From: Candidatus Aenigmatarchaeota archaeon
GTDB taxonomy: Archaea > Aenigmatarchaeota > Aenigmatarchaeia > CG10238-14
DNA length: 64,000 nt
Direction of reading: 5' to 3'
Assembly: GCA_044343545.1 (NCBI GenBank)
Contig: JAWBZR010000003.1
Coordinates: forward strand, 10,320-74,319
This document shows, piece by piece, positions 5,382-54,612 of the stretch. The notes beneath the pieces are model-generated. The model worked only from the letters and a program-made list of their open reading frames with translations. It searched no databases and had not been told where the DNA came from. The stretch's first letter is position 1, and each line of letters starts with the position of its first letter. Position numbers and translations under genes: made by a program.

Positions 5382-5500
5382 GCTGGAGTAGATCAGCGGT
5401 TAGATCGCCGCGCTCATAAGCTTTTAAGCTTAATGAGCTATGATATGATGATTAGAAAGGTGAACCGCGGAAGTCGGGAGTTCGAATCTCCCCTCCAGCA
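5382..5500 (+). tRNA. tRNA-CAT (elongator Met or Ile2) with ~46-nt intron after position 37
   Basis: Hand-folded cloverleaf. Acceptor gctggag/ctccagc; D stem gatc/gatc; anticodon stem ccgcg/cgcgg; loop ctCATaa; T arm gggag-ttcgaat-ctccc; discriminator A; no encoded CCA. A 46-nt insert (approx 5419-5464) separates the two halves of the anticodon stem at the canonical 37/38 site. G1:C72 argues against initiator tRNA. Confidence 0.8.
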
Positions 5501-38033: not shown

Positions 38034-38429
38034 TCAGATATTTTTGTTTACAAATTTTTTTGCTTCTTTTATAAAATACTCTGCCTCCTTGATCAAAAGC
38101 TCTACTTCATCCTTCTCTATTACAACATTTAGATAATAGTCAGCACTTTCTCTTAATTCAAAAGATTTTCTTAATATTTTACCCATTTTTTTATCTGCTT
38201 TTTTTTCTTTAACTATTTTTGAGCCAAACTCGGAAATTAACCCTGCGTGTGTTTTGGCATCATATCCGATTGCATTGAGCATAGCTTTGGCAGCATAAAA
38301 CAAAGAGTAATATATTCTATTTGCAGCATCCTCTATTAAATCTTTGCTTAAGAGCAATTTCGCAGCTGACAGCCTTTTTTCTGCCTTCTCAATTTCTCCT
38401 TTTATTATATCTTTTGTAATTTCATTCAT
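38034..38429 (-). CDS. HEPN-domain protein (toxin component of HEPN/MNT pair)
   Basis: All-helical, 131 aa; AKAMLNAIGYDAKTHAGLISEFG and LRESADYY resemble PF05168 HEPN. Overlaps the upstream MNT gene by 8 nt. Confidence 0.55.
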   Translation of the reverse strand: MNEITKDIIKGEIEKAEKRLSAAKLLLSKDLIEDAANRIYYSLFYAAKAMLNAIGYDAKTHAGLISEFGSKIVKEKKADKKMGKILRKSFELRESADYYLNVVIEKDEVELLIKEAEYFIKEAKKFVNKNI

Positions 38430-38721
38430 TGTAAATCACCCTGCCTTTGATTATTTCAAGCACAAAAGGATCTTTTTTATTTATCTTTTTGTAAAAATCA
38501 TCTTTGGTAAAAAATTTTAGAGAAACAACTTTACCATACTTGAATAATATCTTATCAGCAATTTTTTCAGCCTTTTGCTTAATTTTTTTATTATTAGAAA
38601 TTATTGCTAAATCTATATCCGAATCAAGCCTATAGTTGCCCCTGGCAACAGAACCGAACAATATTATAGTTGCCTTTAATCCTTCAAACTCTTTTATTAT
38701 GTTTTTATGATATTTTAGCAT
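38422..38721 (-). CDS. minimal nucleotidyltransferase (MNT antitoxin component)
   Basis: ILFGSVARGNYRLDSDIDLAII is the GSxxxG..DxD Pol-beta-type NTase motif. Confidence 0.7.
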   Translation of the reverse strand: MLKYHKNIIKEFEGLKATIILFGSVARGNYRLDSDIDLAIISNNKKIKQKAEKIADKILFKYGKVVSLKFFTKDDFYKKINKKDPFVLEIIKGRVIYNE

Positions 38722-38745: not shown

Positions 38746-39597
38746 TTAAAAAACACATATCGTCTTCCATTCCAAGCAAACAAGTCTTAACCATCTATTA
38801 CAAACAGTAGAGCAAATTGTTGTGGTTGTTGTTGGGGTTGTAACAGTTGTGGTTGAAGTGGTTGTGGTTGTGTTTTGAGTTGTAACAGTTGTGCTTGAAG
38901 TTGAAATGCATTTACCAAATCTTATATCACCTGTCCATCTACAATTTGAATTTAACTGACATTGCCAAAAATTCAAAGACTGACAAATATTTGTTGGTGT
39001 AGTGATTGTTGTTGGCGTTATATTTGTGTTTTGAGTTGTTGACGTCATTGTTGTTGTCGTGGTTGTTGTCTGTGAATTTTCTGGAACCGTAGTTGTTGTT
39101 CCATAAATACTTGCACAATAACCTGTAAACATATTGCCTATCCATTTGCAACCTGGCAAAGTGGCACAGTTATAAAATGATCTTCCGTTGCAATCATATA
39201 CCACTTGAGGTGTCGTTGTTGTGGTTGTAGTAGTTGTCATCACTGGAGTAAAACTTCCTTCTGGCAAAGCATAATATTTGCATTCTAAAGAAGAAGAAAA
39301 ACCATTTCTTGTATCTGTCACAAAAACAAACAAAGTAGCAACCGTTCCAGAATATGATCTAAAAGATATTACTTTGCTTTCATTCGGCTCTAAATAAAAA
39401 AGATTTGTTGGATATATGTTGATCAAAGAAAATTTATTATCGATATAAACCTTAACAGTAAAATTTTCTGGATTAGTAAAAATATAATCACCTGTAAAAA
39501 CATTATTTGGCATATATGGTCTGCCGCATGAAACAGTAACTGCAAAAACATCTTTGATTAAAAAAAGCATAAAAATAATTATCAGAATTTTTTTCAT
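38746..39597 (-). CDS. Thr-rich secreted protein with 'AVTVSCG' N-domain and two 4-Cys modules (family B, copy 2)
   Basis: Signal MKKILIIIFMLFLIKDVFA|VTVSCGRPYMP (paralogous to the 33999 ORF N-domain, incl. SLECKYYA vs SLQCYVYA). Modules CNGRSFYNCATLPGCKWIGNMFTGYC and CQSLNFWQCQLNSNCRWTGDIRFGKC. Confidence 0.5.
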   Translation of the reverse strand: MKKILIIIFMLFLIKDVFAVTVSCGRPYMPNNVFTGDYIFTNPENFTVKVYIDNKFSLINIYPTNLFYLEPNESKVISFRSYSGTVATLFVFVTDTRNGFSSSLECKYYALPEGSFTPVMTTTTTTTTTPQVVYDCNGRSFYNCATLPGCKWIGNMFTGYCASIYGTTTTVPENSQTTTTTTTMTSTTQNTNITPTTITTPTNICQSLNFWQCQLNSNCRWTGDIRFGKCISTSSTTVTTQNTTTTTSTTTVTTPTTTTTICSTVCNRWLRLVCLEWKTICVF

Positions 39598-39720: not shown

Positions 39721-40761
39721 TTAAACTGGTCTTGCTATTATTAAAATACTGCCTTGATCAAATGTTCCTATGCATGGACTTGGATAATGTATCTTGAAGT
39801 AAATGTTTGCTGTTCCTTGGTTTGTCAAAATGTTTTGCATTGGTGCATCTGTTGGTACAGGCATGCCATCAAAGCAGTTGAACAAGCTGCAGCCTTTATT
39901 TGGATCATATTTTCTCATCCAAAGCCATGGTGTTTGTAAAGTTCCTGAAACAGCTCTATATGCTATACCTGTATCAGGATCTTCATCTTCGACTTGAGTA
40001 TTTCCTATCGGTTCAACATCTCTATGCCATTCTAAAACATTTGTTGTTGGGCAAATGCTTACACTGCCGGTTGATGTCAACCCTGGACCTTCACCTGCTA
40101 TCCATACCCACAAGTTAACACCTGCTTCTGCTGTATTTTTCAAAATGATATAGTTCTCGCTATCTGCCCAATCTCCTGGATTAGCTGGTTTGAATCTTAT
40201 TGGTTGATTGTCGCTTGTTGTCAATCTCATAGATATTTGAGGATTGAAATCCCAAACTTCCTCATGCGTGCTGTTAACAAAAGACATTCCTGAAACATCT
40301 AGAACAGATATCTTCACTTTGCTATTCAAATACCAAGATGGTTGTACTGTTAAAATGCATTGATAAGATCTATCTGTAGCTGGATTAAAGTTACCTAAAC
40401 CGTCACAGTTAGGTATATTTGTGATTTGAGTGCAAATAACACCTGTTGGGTCTGGCCCAAAAACTTTAACACTACCGATGTTTATCCATCCATTTGGATC
40501 TCTGACTGTTACATTGAATTTAATTTGCTCCCCTGTAAATGCATATTGGCCTGTTCTTAGATTTAAAATATTTATTCCGTCAACTACCACTTCTCTATTT
40601 TTCACGCATATTTGTTTCGGTGCAATAGCTGGACCTGCTGTAATGTTCACTGAACTTAGAACTGTTTGATAGTTTTGTGCATGCAAAAGTGGCAATAGTA
40701 GCTCTACTGCTACTAATAATAAAATTATTTTATATGATTTTTTCAATTTATCACCCCGCAA
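39721..40761 (-). CDS. secreted protein, family A copy 2
   Basis: Sec signal KSYKIILLLVAVELLLPLLHA. Conserved blocks CDGLGNFNPATDRSYQCILTVQPSWY / PIRFKPANPG / NTAEAGVNLWVWIA / C-terminal YPSPCIGTFDQGSILIIARPV. Confidence 0.55.
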   Translation of the reverse strand: MRGDKLKKSYKIILLLVAVELLLPLLHAQNYQTVLSSVNITAGPAIAPKQICVKNREVVVDGINILNLRTGQYAFTGEQIKFNVTVRDPNGWINIGSVKVFGPDPTGVICTQITNIPNCDGLGNFNPATDRSYQCILTVQPSWYLNSKVKISVLDVSGMSFVNSTHEEVWDFNPQISMRLTTSDNQPIRFKPANPGDWADSENYIILKNTAEAGVNLWVWIAGEGPGLTSTGSVSICPTTNVLEWHRDVEPIGNTQVEDEDPDTGIAYRAVSGTLQTPWLWMRKYDPNKGCSLFNCFDGMPVPTDAPMQNILTNQGTANIYFKIHYPSPCIGTFDQGSILIIARPV

Positions 40762-41135: not shown

Positions 41136-43115
41136 TTAAATTCTATTTTGAACCAACCAATTTACCAACTTATTAAAAAGCAAGTTGCCTGCATCGTTCA
41201 AATCTTTTGGTGTGCTTGAAGCGAACCAACCAACATACGCATAATTGTTTGCGACGAACAAAGTGGATGATTGATGATTTCCAGAGTCGGCCAAGTCGGT
41301 GACGGAGGAAGCTAAATTGTAATCTTGTACGACATTGAATTTTGGTTTATTCATGATATTTACAAATCCAGATAAACCTTGAGTTATTTGGTGAGTTTTA
41401 GTTATGTATAAAGATTCGGATCTGACAAATCCCACATATCCTTTCGTATATCCAAATCTCCAACCTGCATTAACATAAGGTTGATCTGCTATTTCCAAGA
41501 ATGGAATGCCCGACTTGTGTGCAGAAAATGCTGGATGAGATCCATCTATCTTGCAAGCTCTTAGCTCATCGCTGCAAGCTATGAGTTTGTAATTTCTTAT
41601 TTCGCTTCCCCAAGACCAATAACCTTTAGCGTCAACAGTCCAACCTCTCTCTTCAAGCCACCTTATCGTATCTTTTTCTATTCCGTGATTGCATTCGTCT
41701 GTTCTGCAAATGAATGCTATATCTCTATAAACAGGTAAATCTATTTTGAAAAACCACGATACCTCAGGTAATTCGTTTCCATTTAGATCTTTACACCTTG
41801 CATAAACTACATAAGTATTGTTGGGTAATTCGAAATCAATTTGGTATTCATGCAATGGAAGATTGTATGGGAATTCGAAATCCATTGACTCGTAAGGTTT
41901 TCTGACATTCAAGGAAAATTTGCACACCGTCTTTTCATCAGTTAATATTCTTATCAAAGGTTTTCTTGTATTCACGTTACCTATAGGAGAATATTCTAAG
42001 ATTTTTGGTAATTTAACTTCACTCTCTATTGATTCTGAAGTTAACCATTCCAATATTCTATTAAATATTGTCGCACCACTATCTGTCAAACCTTCGCTTC
42101 CTATTTCGTTAAACCAACCAACATACGCATAATTGTTTGCGACGAACAAAGTGGATGATTGATGATTTCCAGAGTCGGCCAAGTCGGTGACGGAGGAAGA
42201 TAATAAATCATCCGGAATTACATTGAACTTGCTTCCTATCAACACGTCCACGGAACCTGAAAATCCACTGGTTATTTGATGATTTTTAGTTATGTAGAGT
42301 TCTTCATTGTTTGTCAATCCCACATATCCTTTCGTATATCCAAATCTCCAACCTGCATTAACATAAGGTTGATCTGCTATTTCCAAGAATGGAATGCCCG
42401 ACTTGTGTGCAGAAAATGCTGGATGAGATCCATCTATCTTGCAAGCTCTTAGCTCATCGCTGCAAGCTATGAGTTTGTAATTTCTTATTTCGCTTCCCCA
42501 AGACCAATAACCTTTAGCGTCAACAGTCCAACCATTCTCTGCCAAGAATGATATCATAGATTTTTCTATTCCGTGATTGCATTCGTCTGTTCTGCAAATG
42601 AATGCTACCTTACCTAATTTTTCTCTAATTTTAAAAGTTGTGTTAGCATAATATCCCTTGTTTTCAGAAAACAAAATTACTCTTGCTTCATAGTTGCCAA
42701 ATTGCAAATCTTCAAAGGACCATAATATTTCCAATTCAACATGTTTAGTGATATCGTATCCGTAATATCCATAACCGTATCCGTAATCTAAATTTTCACG
42801 CTTCAATTCCACTGAAACAAATCTTTTATCTTGCTGCGAACATTCACTATGAAATCCTTCATCTAAACTTGAAAGAATGCACAAACTAGTTATATTATTG
42901 TGCTCTTCTAAACCTCTTATTTCAATCGAGATATTTTCTATTAAATTCCATTCGTCTATGTTTTCTATTTTCACGTTGAGCTTGACTAAACTACCCTTGA
43001 AGTAAGTTTTCTTATCAGTAAAAATTTGAATGTTAAAGGCCGTTGTGCTTTCTGAGAATATTATAAGTAGAATTAAAATCGAAGTTGAAAGAATAGGTAA
43101 AAATTTTTCATTCAA
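41136..43115 (-). CDS. secreted protein with two copies of a ~200-aa Cys-containing domain (recent internal duplication)
   Basis: Signal ILSTSILILLIIFSESTTA. Domain FICRTDECNHGIEK..GWTVDAKGYWSWGSEIRNYKLIACSDELRACKIDGSHPAFSAHKSGIPFLEIADQPYVNAGWRFGYTKGYVG occurs twice, nearly identical. Confidence 0.55.
   Translation of the reverse strand: MNEKFLPILSTSILILLIIFSESTTAFNIQIFTDKKTYFKGSLVKLNVKIENIDEWNLIENISIEIRGLEEHNNITSLCILSSLDEGFHSECSQQDKRFVSVELKRENLDYGYGYGYYGYDITKHVELEILWSFEDLQFGNYEARVILFSENKGYYANTTFKIREKLGKVAFICRTDECNHGIEKSMISFLAENGWTVDAKGYWSWGSEIRNYKLIACSDELRACKIDGSHPAFSAHKSGIPFLEIADQPYVNAGWRFGYTKGYVGLTNNEELYITKNHQITSGFSGSVDVLIGSKFNVIPDDLLSSSVTDLADSGNHQSSTLFVANNYAYVGWFNEIGSEGLTDSGATIFNRILEWLTSESIESEVKLPKILEYSPIGNVNTRKPLIRILTDEKTVCKFSLNVRKPYESMDFEFPYNLPLHEYQIDFELPNNTYVVYARCKDLNGNELPEVSWFFKIDLPVYRDIAFICRTDECNHGIEKDTIRWLEERGWTVDAKGYWSWGSEIRNYKLIACSDELRACKIDGSHPAFSAHKSGIPFLEIADQPYVNAGWRFGYTKGYVGFVRSESLYITKTHQITQGLSGFVNIMNKPKFNVVQDYNLASSVTDLADSGNHQSSTLFVANNYAYVGWFASSTPKDLNDAGNLLFNKLVNWLVQNRI
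41225..41716. repeat. direct repeat copy 1 (intragenic, ~490 bp)
   Basis: Blocks 41225-41311 and 41431-41645 are identical to 42113-42199 and 42319-42533 (offset 888). Intervening blocks are diverged. Confidence 0.8.
42113..42604. repeat. direct repeat copy 2 (intragenic, ~490 bp)
   Basis: See copy 1; mosaic identical/diverged pattern. Confidence 0.8.
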
Positions 43116-43314: not shown

Positions 43315-44616
43315 TCAACTGAATGAATATACATAAATGTTCTCGTGTACTTGACTTAACGTGCAATTACCTCTCGTGTAAACTATAGTTATGTTGTTTT
43401 GTTTCAAAAAGTTTATGTTGGTACAATTTTTATTTATAAAATCTTCTGCTTTTCTTACTTTATCTAGTTCCGACTCTACAGGACCGAAAGGCATAACTGC
43501 ATACACAGGTTTTTCAGCAACAAAAGCAAATGCTCTTGCCTTCCATGGATCTAATATTGCTTTCCCTTGTAGATTATATCTTATCCACAAAAAACTCTCG
43601 TAATCGTGATCATCAATTATCTTGTAATGTTGCTGCTTCGATATTGCATTAACAGATAAAACTAAAATAATTGCTAATAACATAGTCATTAATTTTTTTC
43701 CAAACTTTGCTATACTGTAAGAAGCTACTATATTCATGAAAAGTATGAGGGGTATGTATATTCTTATGTATGGAATTAGCAATGTTTGACCAAACCTTGC
43801 ATGTAAAACTATCAAAAATATTAAAAACATACTTGTGTACGCGATATCTTTATGCTTTGTTTTAAGAATAAAATAGAAACCTATAACAAAAAACACTGTT
43901 TGTATATAACCATATATTTGTGGAAGTTGTCTTAAACTTATCCAAAAATCGAACTTTATTGCATTTATACCTTTATTTAATTCATTGTAATAGTTTGGTA
44001 AAGATAGCAATATTGCTAAAACTACAAAAAGTATGAGTTGTTTGTTTTTTGCCATCAAAAAATTGAAAAACAGATAAATCATCAAAACCATAGCTGATGG
44101 TGGATGAGCTAAAAGGAGGAAAAGAAGCGAAGAAAACAGTATTGTCATTTTACCTTCTTTTGTTGCTCTTATTGATAGAGGAATGAATATTAAACTCAAA
44201 TTAACAGGCATAAGATAAACTGGTCCTCCCATAGTAGCGTTGCTCGGAATCAAAGCTGTTAAAACACTTGCTATTAATGCCTCCTTTTTTCCGAACAATC
44301 TTGTAGTGCATGCATAAACAGATAAAACTGAGATCGCATGAAAAATGGCTGGTAATATTATCCATTGTGTGGCTTCTAAATTTAATGCTTGAAAAGAAGC
44401 TAAAAGATAATGCCAAACAGGCTCCATACTCAGCTTGAAAGGTTTGTTATCAAACCAATTTATTGGTGAAAAATACAAAATCATCTTTGCTTCTGCTATG
44501 TGAAACCATTCATCAACATGAAAAGGATAGGGGTAATTTATATGCGGATAGTAAGTAAGTGAAAAAGCTAATAGAATTGAAAAAAACAAAATAACACTTT
44601 CTTTTGATGATTTCAT
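43315..44616 (-). CDS. polytopic membrane protein, GT-C-fold glycosyltransferase-like (PMT_2/ArnT-like)
   Basis: ~11 TM helices. First extracytoplasmic loop HVDEWFH resembles the DE(x) catalytic loop of GT-C mannosyl/arabinosyl transferases. Confidence 0.4.
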   Translation of the reverse strand: MKSSKESVILFFSILLAFSLTYYPHINYPYPFHVDEWFHIAEAKMILYFSPINWFDNKPFKLSMEPVWHYLLASFQALNLEATQWIILPAIFHAISVLSVYACTTRLFGKKEALIASVLTALIPSNATMGGPVYLMPVNLSLIFIPLSIRATKEGKMTILFSSLLFLLLAHPPSAMVLMIYLFFNFLMAKNKQLILFVVLAILLSLPNYYNELNKGINAIKFDFWISLRQLPQIYGYIQTVFFVIGFYFILKTKHKDIAYTSMFLIFLIVLHARFGQTLLIPYIRIYIPLILFMNIVASYSIAKFGKKLMTMLLAIILVLSVNAISKQQHYKIIDDHDYESFLWIRYNLQGKAILDPWKARAFAFVAEKPVYAVMPFGPVESELDKVRKAEDFINKNCTNINFLKQNNITIVYTRGNCTLSQVHENIYVYSFS

Positions 44617-46896: not shown

Positions 46897-47793
46897 ATGA
46901 AAAGCAAAATAATTTTGTTCCTTTTTTTGCTTTTTACTTTGAAAATTGCTTATGCGGCTGACAAGAATGTTTATACTAGCATTTATTTACTTAATCTTGG
47001 AAAGTTTGATATATCAACAGGCTCATTCACTGCTGACTTTTATCTCAATTTTGATTGTGAAAACGAATGCCCGCAAATAGATTTTGAATTTATGAATGGC
47101 AGAGCAAACAGTTTAGATAAATTAATTGACACGCCAAAATCAAAAACATACAGAATACAAGCTAATCTTGTTAGCCATATAGATTTGAAAAAATTTCCGT
47201 TTGATAATCAAACATTAAAGATAATAATAGAGGATAAAACCAAAACTATAGATGAACTTGTATTTGTGGCAAAAAATGAATATAGTGGTATTGATCCTTC
47301 CATTGTTTTCATAGGTTGGGAAATGGGTCAATGGAAAGCTTATTCAACAGAGCATTATTATGATGTGTATAACGAAACTTATTCGCAATATGTATTTGAA
47401 ATACCTATTTACAGAATAACAATAAATGCTGTTTTCAAAACATTTTTGCCAATAATATTCATTATATTGATAATGCTTTCCAGTTTTGTATTAGACCCGG
47501 ATAAGATAACTACAAGATTGGGAATGGTCGGCTCTGCTTTAGTTGCATCTGTAATGTATCATGTCTCTATAGCAAATCAAATACCACCTGTAAGCTATTT
47601 AACATTTGTGGACAAATTCATGATTTTGACTTATTTTATAACACTATTGAGTTTTGGATTTAACGTGTTTTTGCTCGAGCTAAATGAAGAAAAAAAGAAA
47701 AAGCTTGTAAATAAATTGCACAAATATACAGAATTTACTATGTTTATAGTTGTTCCGATTCTTTATGTTTTGTTATTCCTGCTGTTTTTGTGA
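46897..47793 (+). CDS. pentameric ligand-gated ion channel (Cys-loop/pLGIC superfamily) homolog
   Basis: Signal peptide + ~170-aa extracellular domain + 4 TM. Pre-M1 YRITINAVFKTFLPIIFIILIML. M2 TRLGMVGSALVASVMYHVSI. M2-M3 loop NQIPPVSYLTFVDKFMILTYF (cf. GABA-A LPKVSYVKAIDIWM). M3, loop and M4 follow in canonical order. Confidence 0.6.
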   Translation: MKSKIILFLFLLFTLKIAYAADKNVYTSIYLLNLGKFDISTGSFTADFYLNFDCENECPQIDFEFMNGRANSLDKLIDTPKSKTYRIQANLVSHIDLKKFPFDNQTLKIIIEDKTKTIDELVFVAKNEYSGIDPSIVFIGWEMGQWKAYSTEHYYDVYNETYSQYVFEIPIYRITINAVFKTFLPIIFIILIMLSSFVLDPDKITTRLGMVGSALVASVMYHVSIANQIPPVSYLTFVDKFMILTYFITLLSFGFNVFLLELNEEKKKKLVNKLHKYTEFTMFIVVPILYVLLFLLFL

Positions 47794-47816: not shown

Positions 47817-48395
47817 TTAATCATCCAAATTAAATGTTTTTAGAAATCTTTTCTTCACAAATTTTGGATATTTTTTTATGTATTCTTTCATTCTTTTCTT
47901 GTCAATTTTTAGTTTAGAAATTATTTTCTTATCAAGTGGTTGCTTGAAATAAATTAAATCTATTAGTGTTTTTTCTTTGTCTGAAACTGGAATAAGAAAA
48001 TTGTCGTAGTTGATTAGCTCGTATCCGAAAAAATATTTTTTGTTTATTCTTCTCACTATGACATTTGTGCCAAAAACCTCTCTCTTCCCACTTCTTATTT
48101 TTTTAGGTGTTACTATTATTGTGTTTGTTTCTTGCTCCCAAAGATTATGTATGCTTAAAGCAGCTTGCAAACCTATATAAGATGGTCTTATGGCAAACAC
48201 AATTAATGTAGGATCATCGTATAAAGTGTAAAATCCTTTTTCAATTCTTTTGATTTTGTCTTTTTTCAACAAATAATTTAACAAGACATTTGCATAATTT
48301 TCGTTTCTTGTCAAGAGTATTATATCTCTAGTACTCACCACAGGATTTTTCTTGAATAAATCCATTATTCGTGACAAATATTTTATTTTGCCCAT
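47817..48395 (-). CDS. AbiEi-like (COG5340) antitoxin/transcriptional regulator
   Basis: N-terminal wHTH-like KYLSRIMDLFKKNPVVSTRDIILLT plus a C-terminal domain. Overlaps the upstream AbiEii-like gene by 13 nt. Confidence 0.45.
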   Translation of the reverse strand: MGKIKYLSRIMDLFKKNPVVSTRDIILLTRNENYANVLLNYLLKKDKIKRIEKGFYTLYDDPTLIVFAIRPSYIGLQAALSIHNLWEQETNTIIVTPKKIRSGKREVFGTNVIVRRINKKYFFGYELINYDNFLIPVSDKEKTLIDLIYFKQPLDKKIISKLKIDKKRMKEYIKKYPKFVKKRFLKTFNLDD

Positions 48396-49039
48396 ATTTC
48401 TATCGCCTTTATTAAATCTTCCAGCTTTGGAACGGCACCTGAAATTATCAAAGTAGGTAAATTCTTTTCGTCTAACGGTGGTTTGAAATTTTTTAAAAGG
48501 TTGTTTATCAATTTTGAAATTTCTTTTTTTTCTTTTACGTAATTTAGCAAAAAGTATATATCGTAAAGATCTCTTACTTTTTGTCTTTTTTCATATGCCT
48601 TTATTTTTTCCTTAATTATTTCTTCTGGAGTTAAAGTGTAAACAATAATAAATGTTCCGTCAGATAATTCAAACTCTTTTGAAACATAGTTTTTTATGTT
48701 TTCAAAAACAACTTCGAATCTAATTATTGCATTGTTGTAGGCAAATGCTGAATATATGGAATTTTCTGTTTCTTTGAATTTTTGCGTTTGGAAGCCAATC
48801 TTTTCTAGATTTTCCCTGAATTTTTTTAATTGAGTTGAATTTTTTAGTTTTTTCGGTAAATATACATCTATATCTTCTGAAAATCTATTGCCAGAATAAC
48901 ACCTCCATATTGCTGTGCCGCCGTGTATGATAGGAGTAGTTAATGTTTTGTACATCTCAATTACCAATAAATCTTGGGCTAAAGCTATGTCTTTATGATG
49001 CTTTTTTTTGAGTTTTTTTTCTATTGGAAGTATGACCAT
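48383..49039 (-). CDS. AbiEii/DUF1814-family nucleotidyltransferase (type IV TA toxin)
   Basis: IHGGTAIWRCYSGNRFSEDIDVYLP matches the GGTAL...R.SEDIDF signature of AbiEii. Confidence 0.6.
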   Translation of the reverse strand: MVILPIEKKLKKKHHKDIALAQDLLVIEMYKTLTTPIIHGGTAIWRCYSGNRFSEDIDVYLPKKLKNSTQLKKFRENLEKIGFQTQKFKETENSIYSAFAYNNAIIRFEVVFENIKNYVSKEFELSDGTFIIVYTLTPEEIIKEKIKAYEKRQKVRDLYDIYFLLNYVKEKKEISKLINNLLKNFKPPLDEKNLPTLIISGAVPKLEDLIKAIEIWAK

Positions 49040-49463
49040 AAATATAAATTAACCATACTTATATATAAATATAATTTTGGTTGATTTAATCTAAAATTTT
49101 ATAAAATAATTTTAGAGTTTTTGGACTCCAAAACCTTAAATTAAAATACAGTTAAATTTTAATCATACCAAAATTAAATTGTTTTATTAGATTTTAATTT
49201 TTTGAATGTTTTTACATTTCATTTTTTTGGCTTGTAAGTGTATTTCTGCTTTTTTATTTTAACTTTTACTTGGTAGAATTTGTCGTTGAAGAAACATATT
49301 AAAAAATTTTATAATTTTTTAAGAATTTCCAACATTCCTTTATATCTTTTTATTATTCTAGAAATTTCCTTATCTATTTCATTTAAAGGCACTTTCATCG
49401 TATCTATTCTATCATCAGGATATATTATTTATAATGGTACCTCTATTACAGATTCTAACTATT

Positions 49464-50606
49464 TTATAATGCTTTCTGTTTTTTATAAAATTCATGTTTT
49501 TTATATGAAATAAATTTTTTAAAATTATGAATGCCGTCATCATTACTTGTAATATTTTTAGATTTAAAAAATTTCATAGTTTTTCTTAATTTTGTTAACT
49601 CAAATAATTTAATAAATCCACCTTTTTTAAGAGATTGGTACCAAATTTTAACTTTAAAATTTGTATCATAAAACATCCAAAATTGTAATAAAAAATTATA
49701 TATTATATAATCAAATATCCACATCAACTTATCTTTTATTAATAAATTTTTATTACAAAAAATTTTTTTTGCTATATAAATATTCGATAAAAAACTGATA
49801 ATAAAAGTGAAAAATATCATACCAAGTTTTTTATCAAGTTTTGAACAAAATTTGAAAAAAATCCTAAACATTTTTACATGTTTTTCAGAAAAATATAAAG
49901 GATTACCATCTATTTTATATACTTTATTGCCATAATTTAAAATTAATAGTAATTTGTAACCAAACTGATAAGAATCTATAAATGTTTGATTAATTACATT
50001 TTTTAATCTTTTTTTAAGATAATAATTTGAATTATGAAATATAATAACTTTATTTAAGTGCTGCGGTTTTTCTTTAGTAAAGTAATGCCAATGTATTATA
50101 CCTATTGGAGTTACATAATTTTTATTGAAAAATCTTATTAATATAGATTGAAATCTTTTTGACGGATAATCTTCTTTTCTTACTATTGTAAATACATTAG
50201 ATTTAAATGATTTATTTTTGCTTAAATTGTATAAACTTTTATCATTTATATTTTCATCATCTTCTATAATAAATATCCATCTATATTTACATAAAGAAAA
50301 TCCTATATAATAAAAAAATACAGACGTCCCTAAAGGAGGAAAATTAAATATTCTTATTTTATTTTCTTTTTCTAAATGTTTTTTTATTTCATAATAAAAT
50401 TCTAATTTGCTATTATCTAAAATTATTATTTCATCAAAATATTTTTTTAATTTTTTAGCTAATTTTATTACATTTTCCGGTTTATTCATCGAAATAATAA
50501 TTGCAGATACTTTATTCATAAAGATACCTCGATATACTTTCATTATATAAACTTTTAACTTCATCTGATGACAAACTTTTATTATAAATTCTAATTTCAC
50601 CGACAA
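49464..50606 (-). CDS. glycosyltransferase family 2-like protein (start uncertain)
   Basis: VSAIIISMNKPENV..FDEIIILDNS resembles the GT2 N-terminal Rossmann segment. Extremely AT-rich. Likely true start at internal MNKVSAII. Confidence 0.4.
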   Translation of the reverse strand: MSVKLEFIIKVCHQMKLKVYIMKVYRGIFMNKVSAIIISMNKPENVIKLAKKLKKYFDEIIILDNSKLEFYYEIKKHLEKENKIRIFNFPPLGTSVFFYYIGFSLCKYRWIFIIEDDENINDKSLYNLSKNKSFKSNVFTIVRKEDYPSKRFQSILIRFFNKNYVTPIGIIHWHYFTKEKPQHLNKVIIFHNSNYYLKKRLKNVINQTFIDSYQFGYKLLLILNYGNKVYKIDGNPLYFSEKHVKMFRIFFKFCSKLDKKLGMIFFTFIISFLSNIYIAKKIFCNKNLLIKDKLMWIFDYIIYNFLLQFWMFYDTNFKVKIWYQSLKKGGFIKLFELTKLRKTMKFFKSKNITSNDDGIHNFKKFISYKKHEFYKKQKAL

Positions 50607-52878
50607 TTATTTTTCCAAAATAACCAACCGGCTCTTTTGCAATAGTAATAGGATCTTTAAGATTTATTACATCATAAAAATACATATATTCATTATTTAA
50701 TTCACCATCAACATAAATTTTTAAAAATGTTTTATTTTTAGAAATAGTAAACATATGCCAAGAATTTTCAATTCTAGAAGGTGAAGTATTAAAATCAAAA
50801 ATATGCCAAACATAACTTGAATTTTGCAAATGAAAACTTATTCTAGTATAATTATTATTAATTTGTAAACTCCATTCTCTATCTTTTCTTATTATGTTTT
50901 GAATTTTGTTATGTGTTGTACCATTGAGTTTTAGCCAAATAGATATTGTAAATGTTTCACCTGTTTCTAAAGAATCAGAATGTGGAATATATATATATGA
51001 ATTATTGCCGTTTAAATATAAAATGCAACTATTAAGTTTTGTTTTTAACCACACGCCATTATTTATTTTTCCATTATTTCCATAACCCGAATAATCATAA
51101 ATCATATCACCGGAACATTCGTCTATTTTCCAAAAACCTAATAAGTTGTCATGATTTTCAGTATATAGATTTACTTTGTATATAGTAATATTTTCTAATT
51201 TTAAAACCGGTGTGAAATATTTAAAAGATGTATTAATATATGTTTTTATTGTGTCATAATAAAATTGATTAACCAAAATATAATTATTTTCAAATATTAT
51301 AAAGCTAATATTGTTTTTTTCAAAAATTTCTCTTGGAAAATTTTGATTATTAAGATTTTCAAGAATTTTATGATATACATCCGATTTTGGAATATTAATT
51401 TTAGTATCATATAAATTGGAAATATAAAGAGGAATGTTGCTCATAAATGATTGTCGCCAATCAACAATACCATAAACTGGAATCCAAATATAATTTTGAT
51501 TTGGATTTTGCTTTATAAATTCAAAAACACTATCATAATATTGTGGTATACTCACTGGATTTAAAAGCTTAGAATATATTTTTGTTTGAACATAGAAATA
51601 GTAACAAACTGGCGGTAATATAATTACTAATGATAAAATGAGTATAAAAATAGGATATTTTTTTGTATAATAAATTAATAATATGGAAACTAAAATAAAA
51701 CCAAAAGAAAAAACTATATTTAAATTAGCAAGAGCATTTATAAATGGGGAAAAGATAATATTAGGTAAGATTTTAGAAATATTTAATAATATTTTAGAAA
51801 TAAAATTAGAATTATGAAACCCGTTCATAAAAAACATAAAAATAATTATCGTCAAAAAAATACCTAAAGAAATTTCATACAACCAATTATTGTTTTTATT
51901 TAAAAAAATAATAGTTGACCAAAATACAAATGCAAATGGAAGGTAAACTAAAAAATTTGAAGGAAAAACAATTTGTTCTTTGTATATTATACTATATTTT
52001 GTATTTATTTCTTCTTCTTTAAATGAGAATGTTAATATGTTGATAAAAGGCTGGCCCCAATAATCAATTTTAGATTTTGTAAATTTTATCATTTCTTGAG
52101 TTGGATTAATATAAGTAAAGTATATAATATCAAAAAAAATATAACAACTAGATATAATAATTGGGAGGAAGAACAATAAAAAATATTTAAAATTTTTTTT
52201 GTAAATAACTATATTTAAATAGAGAAAAAATACGAAAGTATATGCCAGAATAAAAAATGGTGGATTTGCTACCAAAAAAAATCCCACAAAGCCAAGTAAA
52301 ATATTTTCGAAAATCAATTTTTTTATGTCAAAATTATTAATAAGTTTAAAATAAATATTGATCATAAGAGAAAAAAATATCGGCGCAAAAATATACGGTA
52401 TTTGAAATTGAGGCAAAAAATAATTCTTAATAAGACCTGCATTTGTATATATATTAAAAGCGTAAAACAAAGAAAGTAGATATATTATTATATTAACAAA
52501 ATTAGATTTATTTTTTGAAAATATCAAATTACTTATTTTATTTAAAGACAATATGGAAGAGCAAAAAGATAAATAATGATAAATTATAATTGATAGTTTC
52601 CATGATAAAATTTTATTTCTTAAAAAAAGAAATATTATTTCAACAATAATATAAGATGGGAAGAACCAAAAACCAAAAGGTGATTTAGACATTCTTAAAA
52701 ATTCAGAAAAAGAGATAGCTGCCGATCCATTATCTACAAAACCGCTATATCCTTCTTTTAATAAGTATCTACATATTAATAAAGAAAATAAAATTGGAAT
52801 GAAAAAATAAAACAATAATGTTTTTAAAATTTTTTTAAAATTTAACTTTTTACAATTTGTTTCCATTGGAATTGTCAC
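50512..52878 (-). CDS. large polytopic membrane protein with C-terminal LamG/concanavalin-A-like jelly-roll domain
   Basis: ~14 TM helices, then WKIDECSGDMIYDYSGYGNNGKINNGVWL..FTISIWLKL..GEIRIYNKSLSSDEVKSLY (Laminin_G_3-type pattern). Overlaps neighbouring GT genes. Confidence 0.5.
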   Translation of the reverse strand: MTIPMETNCKKLNFKKILKTLLFYFFIPILFSLLICRYLLKEGYSGFVDNGSAAISFSEFLRMSKSPFGFWFFPSYIIVEIIFLFLRNKILSWKLSIIIYHYLSFCSSILSLNKISNLIFSKNKSNFVNIIIYLLSLFYAFNIYTNAGLIKNYFLPQFQIPYIFAPIFFSLMINIYFKLINNFDIKKLIFENILLGFVGFFLVANPPFFILAYTFVFFLYLNIVIYKKNFKYFLLFFLPIIISSCYIFFDIIYFTYINPTQEMIKFTKSKIDYWGQPFINILTFSFKEEEINTKYSIIYKEQIVFPSNFLVYLPFAFVFWSTIIFLNKNNNWLYEISLGIFLTIIIFMFFMNGFHNSNFISKILLNISKILPNIIFSPFINALANLNIVFSFGFILVSILLIYYTKKYPIFILILSLVIILPPVCYYFYVQTKIYSKLLNPVSIPQYYDSVFEFIKQNPNQNYIWIPVYGIVDWRQSFMSNIPLYISNLYDTKINIPKSDVYHKILENLNNQNFPREIFEKNNISFIIFENNYILVNQFYYDTIKTYINTSFKYFTPVLKLENITIYKVNLYTENHDNLLGFWKIDECSGDMIYDYSGYGNNGKINNGVWLKTKLNSCILYLNGNNSYIYIPHSDSLETGETFTISIWLKLNGTTHNKIQNIIRKDREWSLQINNNYTRISFHLQNSSYVWHIFDFNTSPSRIENSWHMFTISKNKTFLKIYVDGELNNEYMYFYDVINLKDPITIAKEPVGYFGKIIVGEIRIYNKSLSSDEVKSLYNESISRYLYE

Positions 52879-53794
52879 CTTTTTTAATTTTTAAAAGTAA
52901 ATTAAATGCATCTATAGTTCCAGAAAAATATGCTTTTATTAATATCAACTTTTTTTTTAAACTAAAATCAGATTTAAGTAAAATATTTATAATATAGAAT
53001 AACAAAATTATCCAATTAAAAATTGAAACAAAAATAATAAATTCGTATAAATTCGAATATTTAAAATGAAAAATTATTCTGTTTCTAGCAGTAAAATATG
53101 TTCTACTATATGTTTCAAAACCTGTAAATTTTGTTCTTTTAGCATTATGCCAAATTTTAGCGTCTGTATTACAAAAAATTCTAAATTTTGATTGTTTAAC
53201 TCTTTGACAAAAATCTGCTTCATCATAATGGATAGGGAATTCTTTATGATTTAATAATCCAACTTTATAAAAAACTTTCCTTCTTACCATAAAAGCATTT
53301 GGAAAATCGTCAGATGGTATTAATTTTTTTATTTTACCATTATCTATTTTATCTTTGTAGATAAAAAGTGTTGAAGATGTTACCATATTTCTTCTTATAC
53401 CAGCACACCAAATTCTTTTTGGATCAGAAAGATAATACATAGTTGGCCCTAATACTCCTATCATATTATCTTTTTCCATTGTTTTAACAAGTTCAAAAAT
53501 ACAATTCTTATCTATTACATTATCATCATCTATTAAAAAAACATAATCACCTACTGAATTTTTAATACCAATATTTCTAGAATTTGCCAAAAGAAGATTT
53601 TTTTTATTTCTAATAATTTTTACAGATGGATACTTTTTTCTTATTAAATCATATGTTCCATCAGTAGAGGCATCATCTATGACAATTATTTCTAATTTAT
53701 TTTTAGGATAATTACTATTTAATATTGATTCAATTAATGATAGTAGTTCGTTCTTACGGTTATAAGTCGGGATTACTACGGACACTTTTTTCAT
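52850..53794 (-). CDS. glycosyltransferase family 2
   Basis: VSVVIPTYNRKNEL; VIDDASTDGT; DxD FLIDDDN; C-terminal TM helices. Confidence 0.75.
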   Translation of the reverse strand: MKKVSVVIPTYNRKNELLSLIESILNSNYPKNKLEIIVIDDASTDGTYDLIRKKYPSVKIIRNKKNLLLANSRNIGIKNSVGDYVFLIDDDNVIDKNCIFELVKTMEKDNMIGVLGPTMYYLSDPKRIWCAGIRRNMVTSSTLFIYKDKIDNGKIKKLIPSDDFPNAFMVRRKVFYKVGLLNHKEFPIHYDEADFCQRVKQSKFRIFCNTDAKIWHNAKRTKFTGFETYSRTYFTARNRIIFHFKYSNLYEFIIFVSIFNWIILLFYIINILLKSDFSLKKKLILIKAYFSGTIDAFNLLLKIKKGDNSNGNKL

Positions 53795-54612
53795 AATTTC
53801 ACCTTACTCGCTAAAGAACCAAAGACAACGGAAAAATATTCCATTAACTTAAAAAAAATTAAACTACTAGCTAATATAGGCTTTGAATAAAATTTTTTAT
53901 TTTTTAAAAATATCGAAAATCTATAAAAAATACTTGTCTGCTTTTTTGCATAATCACCAAATTTATTTTTATAAACCGACAATGTTTTTCCATAATAGAA
54001 TTTCTTTTTCATCCACTTCAAAAAAGAAAAATTATATTCATTATGAATTATTTCACTGGAAATTCTGTAATTCACTTTATATCCTAACTTTTCTATTTTC
54101 TGTGGCAAAGTGTTTTCTTCAAAAAAAACAACACTTTCATCAAAACCATTGACTTTAATAACTAAATCTTTAGGAAAGAACCTTGCAGATTCTATAGGAG
54201 TATTAGCATAAAAACTTCTTTCAAAATCTCTTACTCTAACCCAGTATGATCTGCCTATAGATCTTTCTGGAATTATTATACCACCTATTTTTTCTTTTGA
54301 ACATAAATCAACACAATCTTTAATTACATTTTTTGTTAATTCCATATCAGAATCTATAAAAAGCAAATATTCACCTTTTGCTTTTTTAGCCCCAAAATTC
54401 TTCTGCTCACTCCTTTCAGATGCTTTGATCTGAAAAACTTTTCTAGTATATTTTCTAGCAATCTCCACAGTTCTATCCTTTGAAAACTTGTCTACAACGA
54501 TTATCTCAATATTCTTGTAGCTTTGATTCTTAACAGACTCTAAACATCTTTCTAAAGTCTTTTCAGAGTTAAAAGTTGGTATAATAACCGAAACTAGAGA
54601 ATCATTAAACAT
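53791..54612 (-). CDS. glycosyltransferase family 2
   Basis: VSVIIPTFNSEKTLERCL; IIVVDKFSKDRT; FIDSDM (DxD). Confidence 0.75.
   Translation of the reverse strand: MFNDSLVSVIIPTFNSEKTLERCLESVKNQSYKNIEIIVVDKFSKDRTVEIARKYTRKVFQIKASERSEQKNFGAKKAKGEYLLFIDSDMELTKNVIKDCVDLCSKEKIGGIIIPERSIGRSYWVRVRDFERSFYANTPIESARFFPKDLVIKVNGFDESVVFFEENTLPQKIEKLGYKVNYRISSEIIHNEYNFSFLKWMKKKFYYGKTLSVYKNKFGDYAKKQTSIFYRFSIFLKNKKFYSKPILASSLIFFKLMEYFSVVFGSLASKVKL

Follow-up and report, generated by a model that had tools for sequence, protein, structure and literature searches.

Recurrent segment-restricted gene conversion between two tandem glutamine amidotransferase-like modules of a putative secreted protein from Aenigmatarchaeota

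A gene for a putative surface protein in the window, by which we mean the whole 64-kb stretch of aenigmatarchaeal DNA that was analysed, encodes two tandem modules in which five segments with opposite phylogenetic histories alternate within one fold. We consider it highly probable that this mosaic reflects recurrent gene conversion, restricted to certain segments, between two anciently duplicated modules that resemble glutamine amidotransferases (GATases) in predicted fold. The modules were duplicated before the lineages diverged; conversion took place recently in this genome, and independent events are seen in six or more lineages of an uncultivated archaeal phylum with reduced genomes.

The coding sequence and its domains are arranged as follows.

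41136..43115 (-): coding sequence of 659 aa from the list of open reading frames, with a TTG start and the stop codon at 41136-41138
43038..43115 (-): N-terminal hydrophobic helix, aa 1-26, with an AF2 helix at aa 5-21
42615..43037 (-): N-terminal all-beta domain, aa 27-167, from AF2 secondary structure
42027..42611 (-): module A, aa 169-363, class I GATase-like fold, limits from phmmer and hmmsearch
41724..42026 (-): Ig-like beta-sandwich linker, aa 364-464, with AF2 strands across aa 372-458
41139..41723 (-): module B, aa 465-659, class I GATase-like fold, limits from phmmer and hmmsearch together with AF2

The order is thus signal peptide, beta-sandwich, module A, Ig-like linker and module B, and the full-length AF2 model (pLDDT 84, pTM 0.51) consists of four separate domains. 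The TTG start agrees with the NCBI start of a near-identical protein (P0003). The N-terminal helix is probably a Sec signal peptide, with cleavage expected at its end (..STTA/FN), where the orthologs carry an equivalent ..NA/FN motif. The first-pass annotation had described a secreted protein; the helix makes this plausible, and it is from the helix that we infer it. The all-beta domain that follows has no match in Pfam, and its GYGYGY loop (aa 109-121) is disordered, with AF2 pLDDT below 50. The protein has no C-terminal membrane anchor.

Two copies of a 195-aa unit, modules A and B, are spaced start to start by exactly 888 bp (296 codons) within the coding sequence at 41136-43115 on the reverse strand, which bears out the earlier description of a domain of about 200 aa duplicated at precisely this offset. 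The Ig-like linker lies outside the repeat and is conserved in orthologs. No further copy of the repeat was found elsewhere in the 64-kb window. We divide each module into S1 (the N-terminal strand and helix), S2 (beta2 to alpha4), S3 (a beta-hairpin region), S4 and S5 (the C-terminal helix), and the segments that match or differ between the two copies are listed below.

42561..42607 (-): 47-bp converted block, module A copy, within S1, AFICRTDECNHGIEK
41673..41719 (-): 47-bp converted block, module B copy, an exact match to 42561..42607
42316..42533 (-): 218-bp converted block, module A copy, segment S2, aa 195-266
41428..41645 (-): 218-bp converted block, module B copy, an exact match to 42316..42533
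42200..42315 (-): module-A-specific S3, aa 267-305, with its orthologs in A modules from other genomes
41312..41427 (-): module-B-specific S3, with its orthologs in B modules from other genomes
42112..42199 (-): 88-bp converted block, module A copy, segment S4, aa 306-334
41224..41311 (-): 88-bp converted block, module B copy, an exact match to 42112..42199

The two longer blocks are each slightly longer than the 87 and 215 bp first reported. A third block, described earlier as near-identical, is present and is in fact exact over 47 bp; this tract is specific to the lineage, being inexact in two relatives (P0001 and P0002). The intervening segments differ as strongly as had been claimed, with 45-56% identity: the S3 counterparts (42200-42315 and 41312-41427, 116 bp) are 56% identical in DNA, a 27-bp segment outside the blocks 52% and the 85-bp tail 45%. 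Beyond the upstream limit of homology between A and B, identity falls to 24%. When the 114 mismatch positions were redistributed at random 200,000 times across the 585-base alignment, not one of the observed lengths of the longest, second and third runs (218, 88 and 47 bp) was ever attained, and the longest run in any shuffle was 68 bp.

Identity within the blocks extends to synonymous sites. Between modules A and B of the window there are no synonymous differences at 46 sites in S2 or at 21 sites in S4, and pS is 0.79 in S3 and 0.70 in S5; across genomes the within-genome values for S3 and S5 range from 0.54 to 0.84. Between genomes, pS in S2 itself is 0.63-0.82. Fragments that are identical through synonymous sites and longer than expected by chance are what GENECONV-type analyses take as conversion, and concerted evolution is marked by paralogs of one genome that resemble each other more than orthologs from different genomes do. 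Both are found here. S2 of A and B is 100, 100, 93, 86, 89 and 72% identical within genomes and 72-75% identical between them, and each S2 without exception lies closest to the paralog in its own genome.

Bootstrapped neighbour-joining trees on p-distance place the segments of one module in conflicting histories. In the S2 tree A and B of the same genome pair with bootstrap values of 89-100% in six lineages. The tree of S1, S3 and S5 instead groups an A clade from four genomes (98%) and a B clade from three (93%), with same-genome pairs at only 0-1%. Independent assemblies (L002, L003, L004, L012/L013, L016 and L018) carry this mosaic at matching positions but in different sequence. One of these (L002, encoding P0001), from a different assembly and with about 71% DNA identity, shows runs of 224 and 86 bp without a mismatch at these positions; in L003, L004 and L012 the tracts are older and partly decayed. 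The suggestion in the first-pass annotation that conversion is ongoing is upheld by the lack of synonymous differences in the blocks, by the conflict between the segment trees and by the recurrence of the mosaic in orthologs.

The two-module architecture, including the Ig-like linker, is older than the split of at least four lineages. Three relatives (P0008, P0011 and P0012) and about 25 others have two modules without homogenization, with S2 of A and B only 22-52% identical, so the architecture is old and independent of how the repeat is assembled. The same two-module protein (P0007) was also recovered in two independent metagenome assemblies.

We propose that non-reciprocal homologous recombination between modules A and B has repeatedly overwritten the module core (S2) and also S4, and that S1, S3 and S5 have escaped conversion and stayed module-specific. 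Tracts may end where identity drops to about 50%, either because strand exchange stalled there or because variants converted in S1, S3 or S5 were selected against. A reciprocal event within these blocks would remove exactly 888 bp and thereby leave one-module hybrids with the head of A and the tail of B. The recombination pathway at the repeat is one that we infer from sequence. Conversion of this kind is of a known type, and the case is a clean one rather than one without precedent.

The ends of the tracts nearly coincide between lineages. On a common coordinate the S2 tract spans 79-296 in the window, 79-302 in P0001, 103-263 in P0002 and about 95-300 in P0004 and P0007. An earlier claim held that selection maintains two distinct but homogenized binding modules. 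In support of distinctness, the A- and B-specific segments are kept across species under purifying selection, with pN of 0.19-0.29 against pS of 0.6-0.77 between orthologs (pN/pS about 0.3). However, a neutral block to strand exchange at about 50% divergence accounts for stable boundaries equally well. Moreover, P0015 is homogenized across S1-S4, nearly the whole module, so that the boundaries are not universal and two distinct modules are not obligatory. We take the claim as partly supported; its word binding would draw on the predicted non-catalytic GATase-like fold. The system offers a natural test case for selection against a divergence barrier as the cause of conversion-tract boundaries.

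The alternative also put forward at first, a very recent partial re-duplication in which pieces of one module were freshly copied to a second site, would suit a 218-bp exact identity taken by itself. It does not suit the perfect 888-bp register, with synonymously saturated segments (pS 0.7-0.8) lying between the blocks, nor the orthology of the A- and B-specific segments across at least four genomes, and three separate in-register insertions in several lineages are not credible. The segment trees, with their A and B clades for S1, S3 and S5, reject it; given an architecture already in place before four or more lineages split, and unconverted segments that are saturated at synonymous sites, we regard re-duplication as extremely improbable. 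There is virtually no chance, in our judgement, that purifying selection at the nucleotide level on an embedded RNA or regulatory element preserved the blocks without recombination, an explanation to which the identity itself is the one thing that points: synonymous sites in these blocks are free to vary from one lineage to another (pS 0.63-0.82), and no Rfam family was matched in the repeat region. Targeted hypermutation of the variable segments, in the style of the template and variable repeats of a diversity-generating retroelement, might be suggested by a locus that combines identical with variable stretches, and such elements are known from DPANN archaea. Nevertheless, the mismatches have no excess of adenine (37 A, 28 G, 25 T and 22 C) and include all twelve substitution types, orthologs conserve the supposedly variable segments, on which purifying selection acts, and both repeat copies are coding modules of one protein. 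No reverse-transcriptase domain was present in the ten neighbouring open reading frames that were scanned, and this origin too has a negligible probability.

It is very improbable that the assembler created the identical blocks in the window by copying or merging, and that the true gene has one module, or two uniformly diverged ones. Near-identical strains have been assembled with one module; L001, for example, lacks exactly 888 bp and is otherwise a 99.93% match. Two metagenome contigs (L016 and L017) start exactly at the left edge of the homogenized block, and merging of variants by an assembler might remove a few true differences inside the blocks, so the 100% identity of the blocks could be slightly inflated. 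Against this, the occurrence of the same mosaic, with other sequence, in independent assemblies of several lineages means that the blocks are not copy artefacts. Some relatives keep scattered mismatches within the blocks, from which it follows that assemblers can and do resolve differences between the copies, and two modules are found also where S2 identity is 22-52% and confusion of repeats is impossible. The refuting scenario that accompanied the original observation, an identical block artefactually copied, is very unlikely in view of the mosaic across assemblies. The real assembly problem at this locus is the opposite one: collapse to a single module, and contigs that break at the edge of a block.

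Gene conversion is not at stake in the related question of whether the one-module genes are real deletion alleles. Hybrids with the head of A and the tail of B occur in four lineages (P0003/L001, P0005/L005, P0087 and P0010/L006). Each corresponds to its two-module relative from which exactly one repeat period has been taken out, and the junction falls in a homogenized block; in L001 the breakpoint of the 888-bp deletion lies within the 88-bp S4 block at 42112..42199. We lean towards the view that these hybrids arose by repeat collapse in silico. Short reads and k-mers are shorter than the blocks (218-224 bp), the two versions of S3 would form a bubble of equal length between shared nodes that assemblers may pop, and there are contigs that end precisely where a block does. 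The coverage of the L006 contig is only 1.5, and L007, being 100% identical to it, is not independent. Conversely, recombination in vivo between direct repeats of 88-224 bp is expected to yield the same products, four lineages carry hybrids, and P0010 is without a close two-module counterpart. L005 is moreover a distinct strain (97.7% identity) in which the hybrid lies in the middle of a 39.7-kb contig. That the hybrids are true recombinants, the blocks acting as a recombination substrate that toggles a surface protein between the two-module form and one-module hybrids joined in S2 or S4, is rather unlikely. Both forms would then exist in natural populations of at least four Aenigmatarchaeota lineages, a polymorphism resembling phase variation in a protein that might serve in host contact or glycan binding. 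For users of public databases the locus is a practical concern: the 363-aa hybrid version of the gene in several genome bins is probably a collapsed one, and contigs break at the block edge.

The AF2 model of the module (pLDDT 95.5, pTM 0.92) was compared with the PDB using Foldseek. PabA (6qur, E 1.1e-7, TM 0.64) was matched together with 2a9v, 1qdl_B, 1gpm_A and others; PabA, TrpG, GuaA and HisH are found at E values of 1e-7 to 1e-4 with TM about 0.64. The GIFT domain of IFT52 (5fms_A, TM 0.67, E 1.8e-5), Wbp1 (6c26_B, E 1.8e-4) and OST48 (6s7t_G, E 5.3e-4) were matched also, and the GIFT domains do not surpass the catalytic GATases in quality of match. Scans of Pfam and NCBIfam up to E 1 gave no GATase family and no family for the module; hmmscan against Pfam at the same limit returned just a sub-threshold 23-residue Aq_1974-like match and no family of GIFT proteins. 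The module profile had no match among PDB sequences, and with hhalign it gave no signal against E. coli PabA, so homology to GATases is visible by fold alone.

A catalytic class I GATase has a Cys-His-Glu triad whose nucleophilic Cys stands at the elbow between strand beta4 and helix alpha4; the module shows no cysteine at its predicted elbow and matches no GATase profile. From the model, the nucleophile elbow would correspond to module residues 79-84 (ADQPYV), between a strand at 75-78 and a helix at 85-89. In this mapping, made by topology rather than by superposition of residues, none of the elbow positions is invariant among 21 modules and none of them holds a Cys or Ser. The cysteines that are invariant in the module are at positions 6, 11, 50 and 57. 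The models point to a previously undescribed family with a class I GATase-like fold and without the canonical catalytic cysteine, which would add an extracellular domain family of this fold to those described. Our models allow the tentative suggestion, which we hold to be somewhat less than even in likelihood, that the modules are non-catalytic extracellular binding domains of GIFT-like fold, possibly for glycans.

The gene neighbourhood is only partly consistent with a binding function, as glycan-synthesis genes are found in some neighbourhoods only: they are close to P0001, P0002, P0005, P0004 and P0011 but absent from the surroundings of P0007 and P0013. In several lineages the nearby genes include a Polysacc_synt flippase or glycosyltransferases. 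The adjacent 433-aa membrane protein has a weak STT3-like match (18 bits) and no match in Pfam or to PDB sequences, so that its assignment as GT-C is not established. Foldseek with the full-length model placed OST48 first (6s7t_G, E 2.5e-8). In OST48/Wbp1 two luminal domains are present, for which binding of sugar or lipid-linked oligosaccharide has been proposed (PMC7226087). The present protein shares with GIFT-type proteins (IFT52, OST48/Wbp1 and GldG) a GATase-type fold and, presumably, a non-cytoplasmic location. It differs from the GATase and GIFT families in that it matches no Pfam or NCBIfam family and no PDB chain at the sequence level, lacks a conserved Cys at the nucleophile elbow, has four invariant cysteines of its own and lacks a C-terminal membrane anchor; overall it superposes poorly on OST48 (TM 0.21-0.31). 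We think it very improbable at best that the tandem pair beside the weakly STT3-like protein is an archaeal counterpart of OST48/Wbp1.

Mosaic gene conversion among archaeal chaperonin paralogs, with phylogenetic signals that conflict along the alignment, was reportedly described by Archibald and Roger in 2002. The chaperonins are separate genes for subunits of a hetero-oligomer, in contrast to tandem modules in one polypeptide. Domain-restricted gene conversion is also known from mtrA-1/mtrA-2 of methanogens (Wang et al. 2015, PMC4632066). There, as here, one region (the MtrA domain) of an ancient archaeal tandem duplication has long been homogenized and another kept different. In mtrA the part that escaped conversion is a transmembrane domain that is non-homologous and was acquired through fusion, whereas in the present protein five converted and unconverted segments alternate within one fold and the unconverted ones are still homologous, though module-specific. 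Recurrent concerted evolution of prokaryotic paralogs is rare, with 26 genes documented (Wang & Chen 2018, PMC6053082). Those cases resemble ours in that paralogs are closer within genomes than orthologs are between them, in many lineages, after an ancient duplication and by gene conversion; they differ in involving two genes rather than two domains of one gene, and members of core pathways or complexes rather than an uncharacterized surface protein. The host here is a DPANN archaeon, and the word "DPANN" does not occur in the text of PMC6053082. Our observations point to homologous recombination that is active in DPANN archaea and shapes surface proteins.

A scan of GTDB genomes, which did not pick up the genome of the window itself, gave only four loci, three from Aenigmatarchaeota and one from Micrarchaeota, and a word-indexed search with the module profile gave seven proteins, with little new besides P0087. 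An exhaustive HMMER search recovered 77 module clusters at 50% identity, many of them two-module and some located inside proteins of more than 2,000 aa.

The repeat lies in direct orientation inside a single ORF (41136-43115, reverse strand; TTG start, 659 residues), and its two copies start exactly 888 bp apart. Comparison base by base at this offset gave three exact blocks.

Exact blocks at offset 888 (reverse strand)
41224-41311 = 42112-42199, 88 bp
41428-41645 = 42316-42533, 218 bp
41673-41719 = 42561-42607, 47 bp

Identity between and beside the blocks is 56% (116 bp), 52% (27 bp) and 45% (85 bp), and outside the repeat it falls to 24%. When the 114 mismatch positions were shuffled 200,000 times across the 585 aligned bases, none of the shuffles gave 218, 88 or 47 bp as the longest, second or third run, the longest run seen being 68 bp. 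The first-pass annotation's description of the repeat is correct, since no shuffle reproduced the observed runs; its 888 bp offset and substantially different intervening segments are borne out, and some sizes need adjustment. The blocks put at 87 and 215 bp are 88 and 218 bp long, the third, called near-identical, is exact over 47 bp, and the repeat, given as ~490 bp, is real and longer, with protein-level homology covering 195 residues (585 bp).

The GC content of the window is ~31%, which together with a tRNA that most likely contains an intron suggests an archaeal source. A contig from a metagenome-assembled genome (MAG) of 'Candidatus Aenigmatarchaeota archaeon' (GCA_044343435.1) is 99.93% identical to it over 4.2 kb, with 3 SNPs. 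The close homologs all come from Aenigmatarchaeota MAGs or metagenomes, and one relative occurs in a Micrarchaeota MAG. The full-length AF2 model (pLDDT 84) gave the following layout, in which the relative arrangement of the domains is undefined because the pTM is low (0.51).

Predicted layout of the 659-residue protein
Residues 5-21, hydrophobic N-terminal helix, probably a signal peptide
Residues 28-164, beta-sandwich
Residues 168-360, module A
Residues 372-458, Ig-like linker
Residues 464-656, module B

The N-terminal domain includes a low-complexity GYGYGY loop (window 42750-42790, residues 109-121) that is predicted to be disordered (pLDDT <50) and whose count of GY units differs between closely related strains (homologs P0002 and P0087).

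For comparison of the modules within and between genomes each was divided into five segments.

Segments, by residues of module A
S1, 169-194
S2, 195-266, includes the 218-bp block
S3, 267-305
S4, 306-334, includes the 88-bp block
S5, 335-363

Modules A and B of the window do not differ at any of the 46 synonymous sites of S2 or the 21 of S4; in S3 and S5 the proportion of synonymous differences (pS) is 0.79 and 0.70, respectively, values that are essentially saturated. Between orthologs (window, P0001, P0002 and P0004) S2 has a pS of 0.63-0.82; there is therefore no nucleotide-level constraint on the blocks, and selection at that level is excluded as their cause. The blocks are identical because one copy recently overwrote the other. 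Retroelement-type mutagenesis of the variable segments was also excluded. The mosaic recurs in the orthologs. P0001 (locus L002), from a different hot-spring MAG and ~71% identical to the window in DNA, matches itself exactly over 224 and 86 bp at the 888-bp offset, at homologous positions but with its own sequence. P0002 (L003) has runs of 101 and 59 bp, and P0004 (L004) and P0007 (L012) carry older tracts with mismatches scattered within them.

For every module the nearest neighbour in S2 is its same-genome partner, whereas in S1, S3 and S5 most modules lie closest to their ortholog in another genome. Neighbour-joining trees (p-distance, 300 bootstrap replicates) are correspondingly opposed: with S2 the same-genome A/B pairs are supported at 89-100%, and with S1+S3+S5 they receive only 0-1%, a clade of four A modules being supported at 98% and one of three B modules at 93%. 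A set of 35 two-module proteins from the wider family puts the A-versus-B baseline in S2 at 22-52% identity, compared with 100% in the window, P0001 and P0015, 93% in P0002, 89% in P0007, 86% in P0004 and 73% in P0006, the seven homogenised lineages. Together the segment trees and this baseline show that the module duplication is ancient and that conversion is recurrent and lineage-specific. Gene conversion, one of two origins offered in the first-pass annotation, is thus supported by the zero pS of the blocks, the opposed trees and the ortholog mosaics. The other, a very recent partial re-duplication, is rejected, the unconverted S3 and S5 being saturated and the duplication ancient.

On a common coordinate (module nucleotides 1-585) the tract ends nearly coincide across lineages. 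Those of S2 lie at 79-296 in the window, 79-302 in P0001, ~95-300 in P0004 and P0007, and 103-263 in P0002; those of S4 lie at 413-500 in the window and 416-501 in P0001. Selection and a divergence barrier are both possible causes. Modules A and B may each need their own S1, S3 and S5, and these segments are conserved between orthologs, the proportion of nonsynonymous differences in S3 being 0.19-0.29 against a pS of 0.6-0.77. It is also possible that the pattern reinforces itself, segments that are ~50% identical no longer supporting strand exchange while identical ones keep converting. P0015 is homogenised over S1-S4, and the boundaries are therefore not absolute. In the predicted fold S2 forms the core from beta2 to alpha4 and S4 three strands; S1 is the first strand and helix, S3 the hairpin region and S5 the C-terminal helix. 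Selection for two distinct modules, as originally suggested, is plausible but unproven.

Mis-assembly, in which an identical block is copied artefactually, had been named as the explanation that would undo the observation. It is very unlikely: the mosaic is found again in other lineages and in assemblies made independently, two metagenomes yielded P0007 in identical form, and the two-module architecture also occurs with modules that have diverged too far for an assembler to mistake one for the other. As a minor caveat, merging of variants by the assembler could mask a small number of real differences within the blocks of the window. The locus in fact troubles assemblers in the opposite direction. 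One-module versions of 355-364 residues, each a two-module gene minus one repeat period and joining an A head to a B tail, occur in public MAGs (L001, GCA_044343435.1; L005, GCA_038999535.1; L006 and L007, GCA_018920365.1 and GCA_038999715.1) and in one metagenome contig (P0087). P0003 (L001) lacks exactly 888 bp of the window gene, the breakpoint lying anywhere inside the 88-bp block, and there are 3 SNPs across 4.2 kb. P0005 (L005), from a strain 97.7% identical, is the P0001 gene minus 888 bp with its breakpoint in the 224-bp block, and the P0002 and P0004 lineages have equivalent A-head/B-tail hybrids in P0087 and P0010, respectively. L016 (1-130) and L017 (1-60), two JGI metagenome contigs belonging to the P0002 lineage, start at the same base (GTAAAGGCTACTGG...), the exact left edge of the homogenised S2 block, as is characteristic of contigs that break where a repeat was not resolved. 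A real crossover between direct repeats is possible and would be expected to give the same products as collapse. We lean towards collapse, the assembler having skipped the repeat loop; the hybrids are probably collapsed assemblies that now propagate as protein records.

That gene conversion drives concerted evolution is well established, and conversion among archaeal chaperonin paralogs is reportedly one precedent. The locus agrees with such evolution in every respect that could be tested. Long-lasting recurrent cases in prokaryotes are reported to be rare, being documented for 26 genes (PMC6053082), and mtrA-1/mtrA-2 is an archaeal example of domain-restricted conversion (PMC4632066). Unlike these cases, the present one is intragenic, alternates five segments within one fold and occurs in a DPANN lineage.

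Searches of Pfam, NCBIfam and the PDB sequences gave no match to the module. An exhaustive HMMER search gave 77 clusters at 50% identity, many of them two-module, and some members carry a single C-terminal module within proteins of >2,000 residues; the family itself is undescribed. The AF2 model of the repeated domain, built from a 21-sequence module alignment, has a pLDDT of 95.5 and a pTM of 0.92, and Foldseek assigned it to the class I glutamine amidotransferase (GATase) fold, with matches to PabA (6qur, E 1.1e-7, TM 0.64), TrpG, GuaA and HisH. The non-catalytic IFT52 GIFT domain (TM 0.67) and OST48/Wbp1 are about as close, and OST48 is the top match of the full-length model (E 2.5e-8), with poor global superposition. 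The invariant residues are C6, C11, C50, C57, E16, W38, H69, E77 and Y92. No conserved Cys or Ser was found at the nucleophile elbow (between strand 75-78 and helix 85-89, a position mapped by topology and not by residue-level superposition), which leads us to read the module as a presumably non-catalytic member of the fold. The four cysteines (window 41139-42611), invariant across the 21 aligned modules, occupy the ends of beta1 and beta3 and the loops after these strands, the distance from the first to the second being variable. Two disulfides or a metal site could result from them. Sugar binding has been proposed for GIFT domains, and recruitment of lipid-linked oligosaccharide for Wbp1/OST48 (PMC7226087).

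The neighbourhood of the gene contains the following features.

Features flanking the gene
38034-38721, reverse strand, toxin-antitoxin-like pair, nucleotidyltransferase/HEPN (via L005 orthologs matching NTP_transf_2 and HEPN)
38746-39597, reverse strand, secreted protein without family match, downstream
39721-40761, reverse strand, secreted protein without family match, downstream
43315-44616, reverse strand, 433-residue multi-pass membrane protein, directly upstream
46897-47793, forward strand, 298-residue membrane protein, matching below threshold (E 5e-4) the ligand-binding domain of pentameric ligand-gated ion channels
47817-49039, reverse strand, toxin-antitoxin-like pair, AbiEii (E 1.8e-16) and AbiEi-like

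The 433-residue protein adjoins the gene in the window, L001, L002, L003 and L005. It has no Pfam or PDB match, its sole match being a weak one to an archaeal STT3 oligosaccharyltransferase model (E 5.9e-4, 18 bits); an 'HVDEW' motif early in the protein, after the first helix, recalls GT-C enzymes. P0001, P0002 and P0005 each have a Polysacc_synt flippase as neighbour, P0004 has one no more than 5 kb away, and four glycosyltransferases lie beside P0011, but no glycan-synthesis-type gene adjoins P0007 or P0013. This context is suggestive of a glycan role but inconsistent, and a glycan-related binding role, our best guess for the module, is offered tentatively; the binding part of the earlier interpretation is likewise plausible but unproven.

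L003 and L005 keep the order of both downstream secreted proteins, one of which has long poly-threonine tracts between Cys-containing repeats (CxxLxxCxW.G); this suggests a conserved surface-protein cluster around the gene, with the toxin-antitoxin-like pairs on both sides of it. In L004 a neighbour of P0004 weakly matches the membrane domain of pentameric ligand-gated ion channels. Elsewhere, window positions 48001-54000 have a GC content of 21-24%, against ~31-35% in the remainder, and several large ORFs (one of 788 residues at 50512-52878); this stretch may be a foreign or fast-evolving island. At 5382-5500 on the forward strand a 119-nt tRNA match in Rfam, absent from the ARAGORN output (bacterial settings), is most likely an intron-containing archaeal tRNA.
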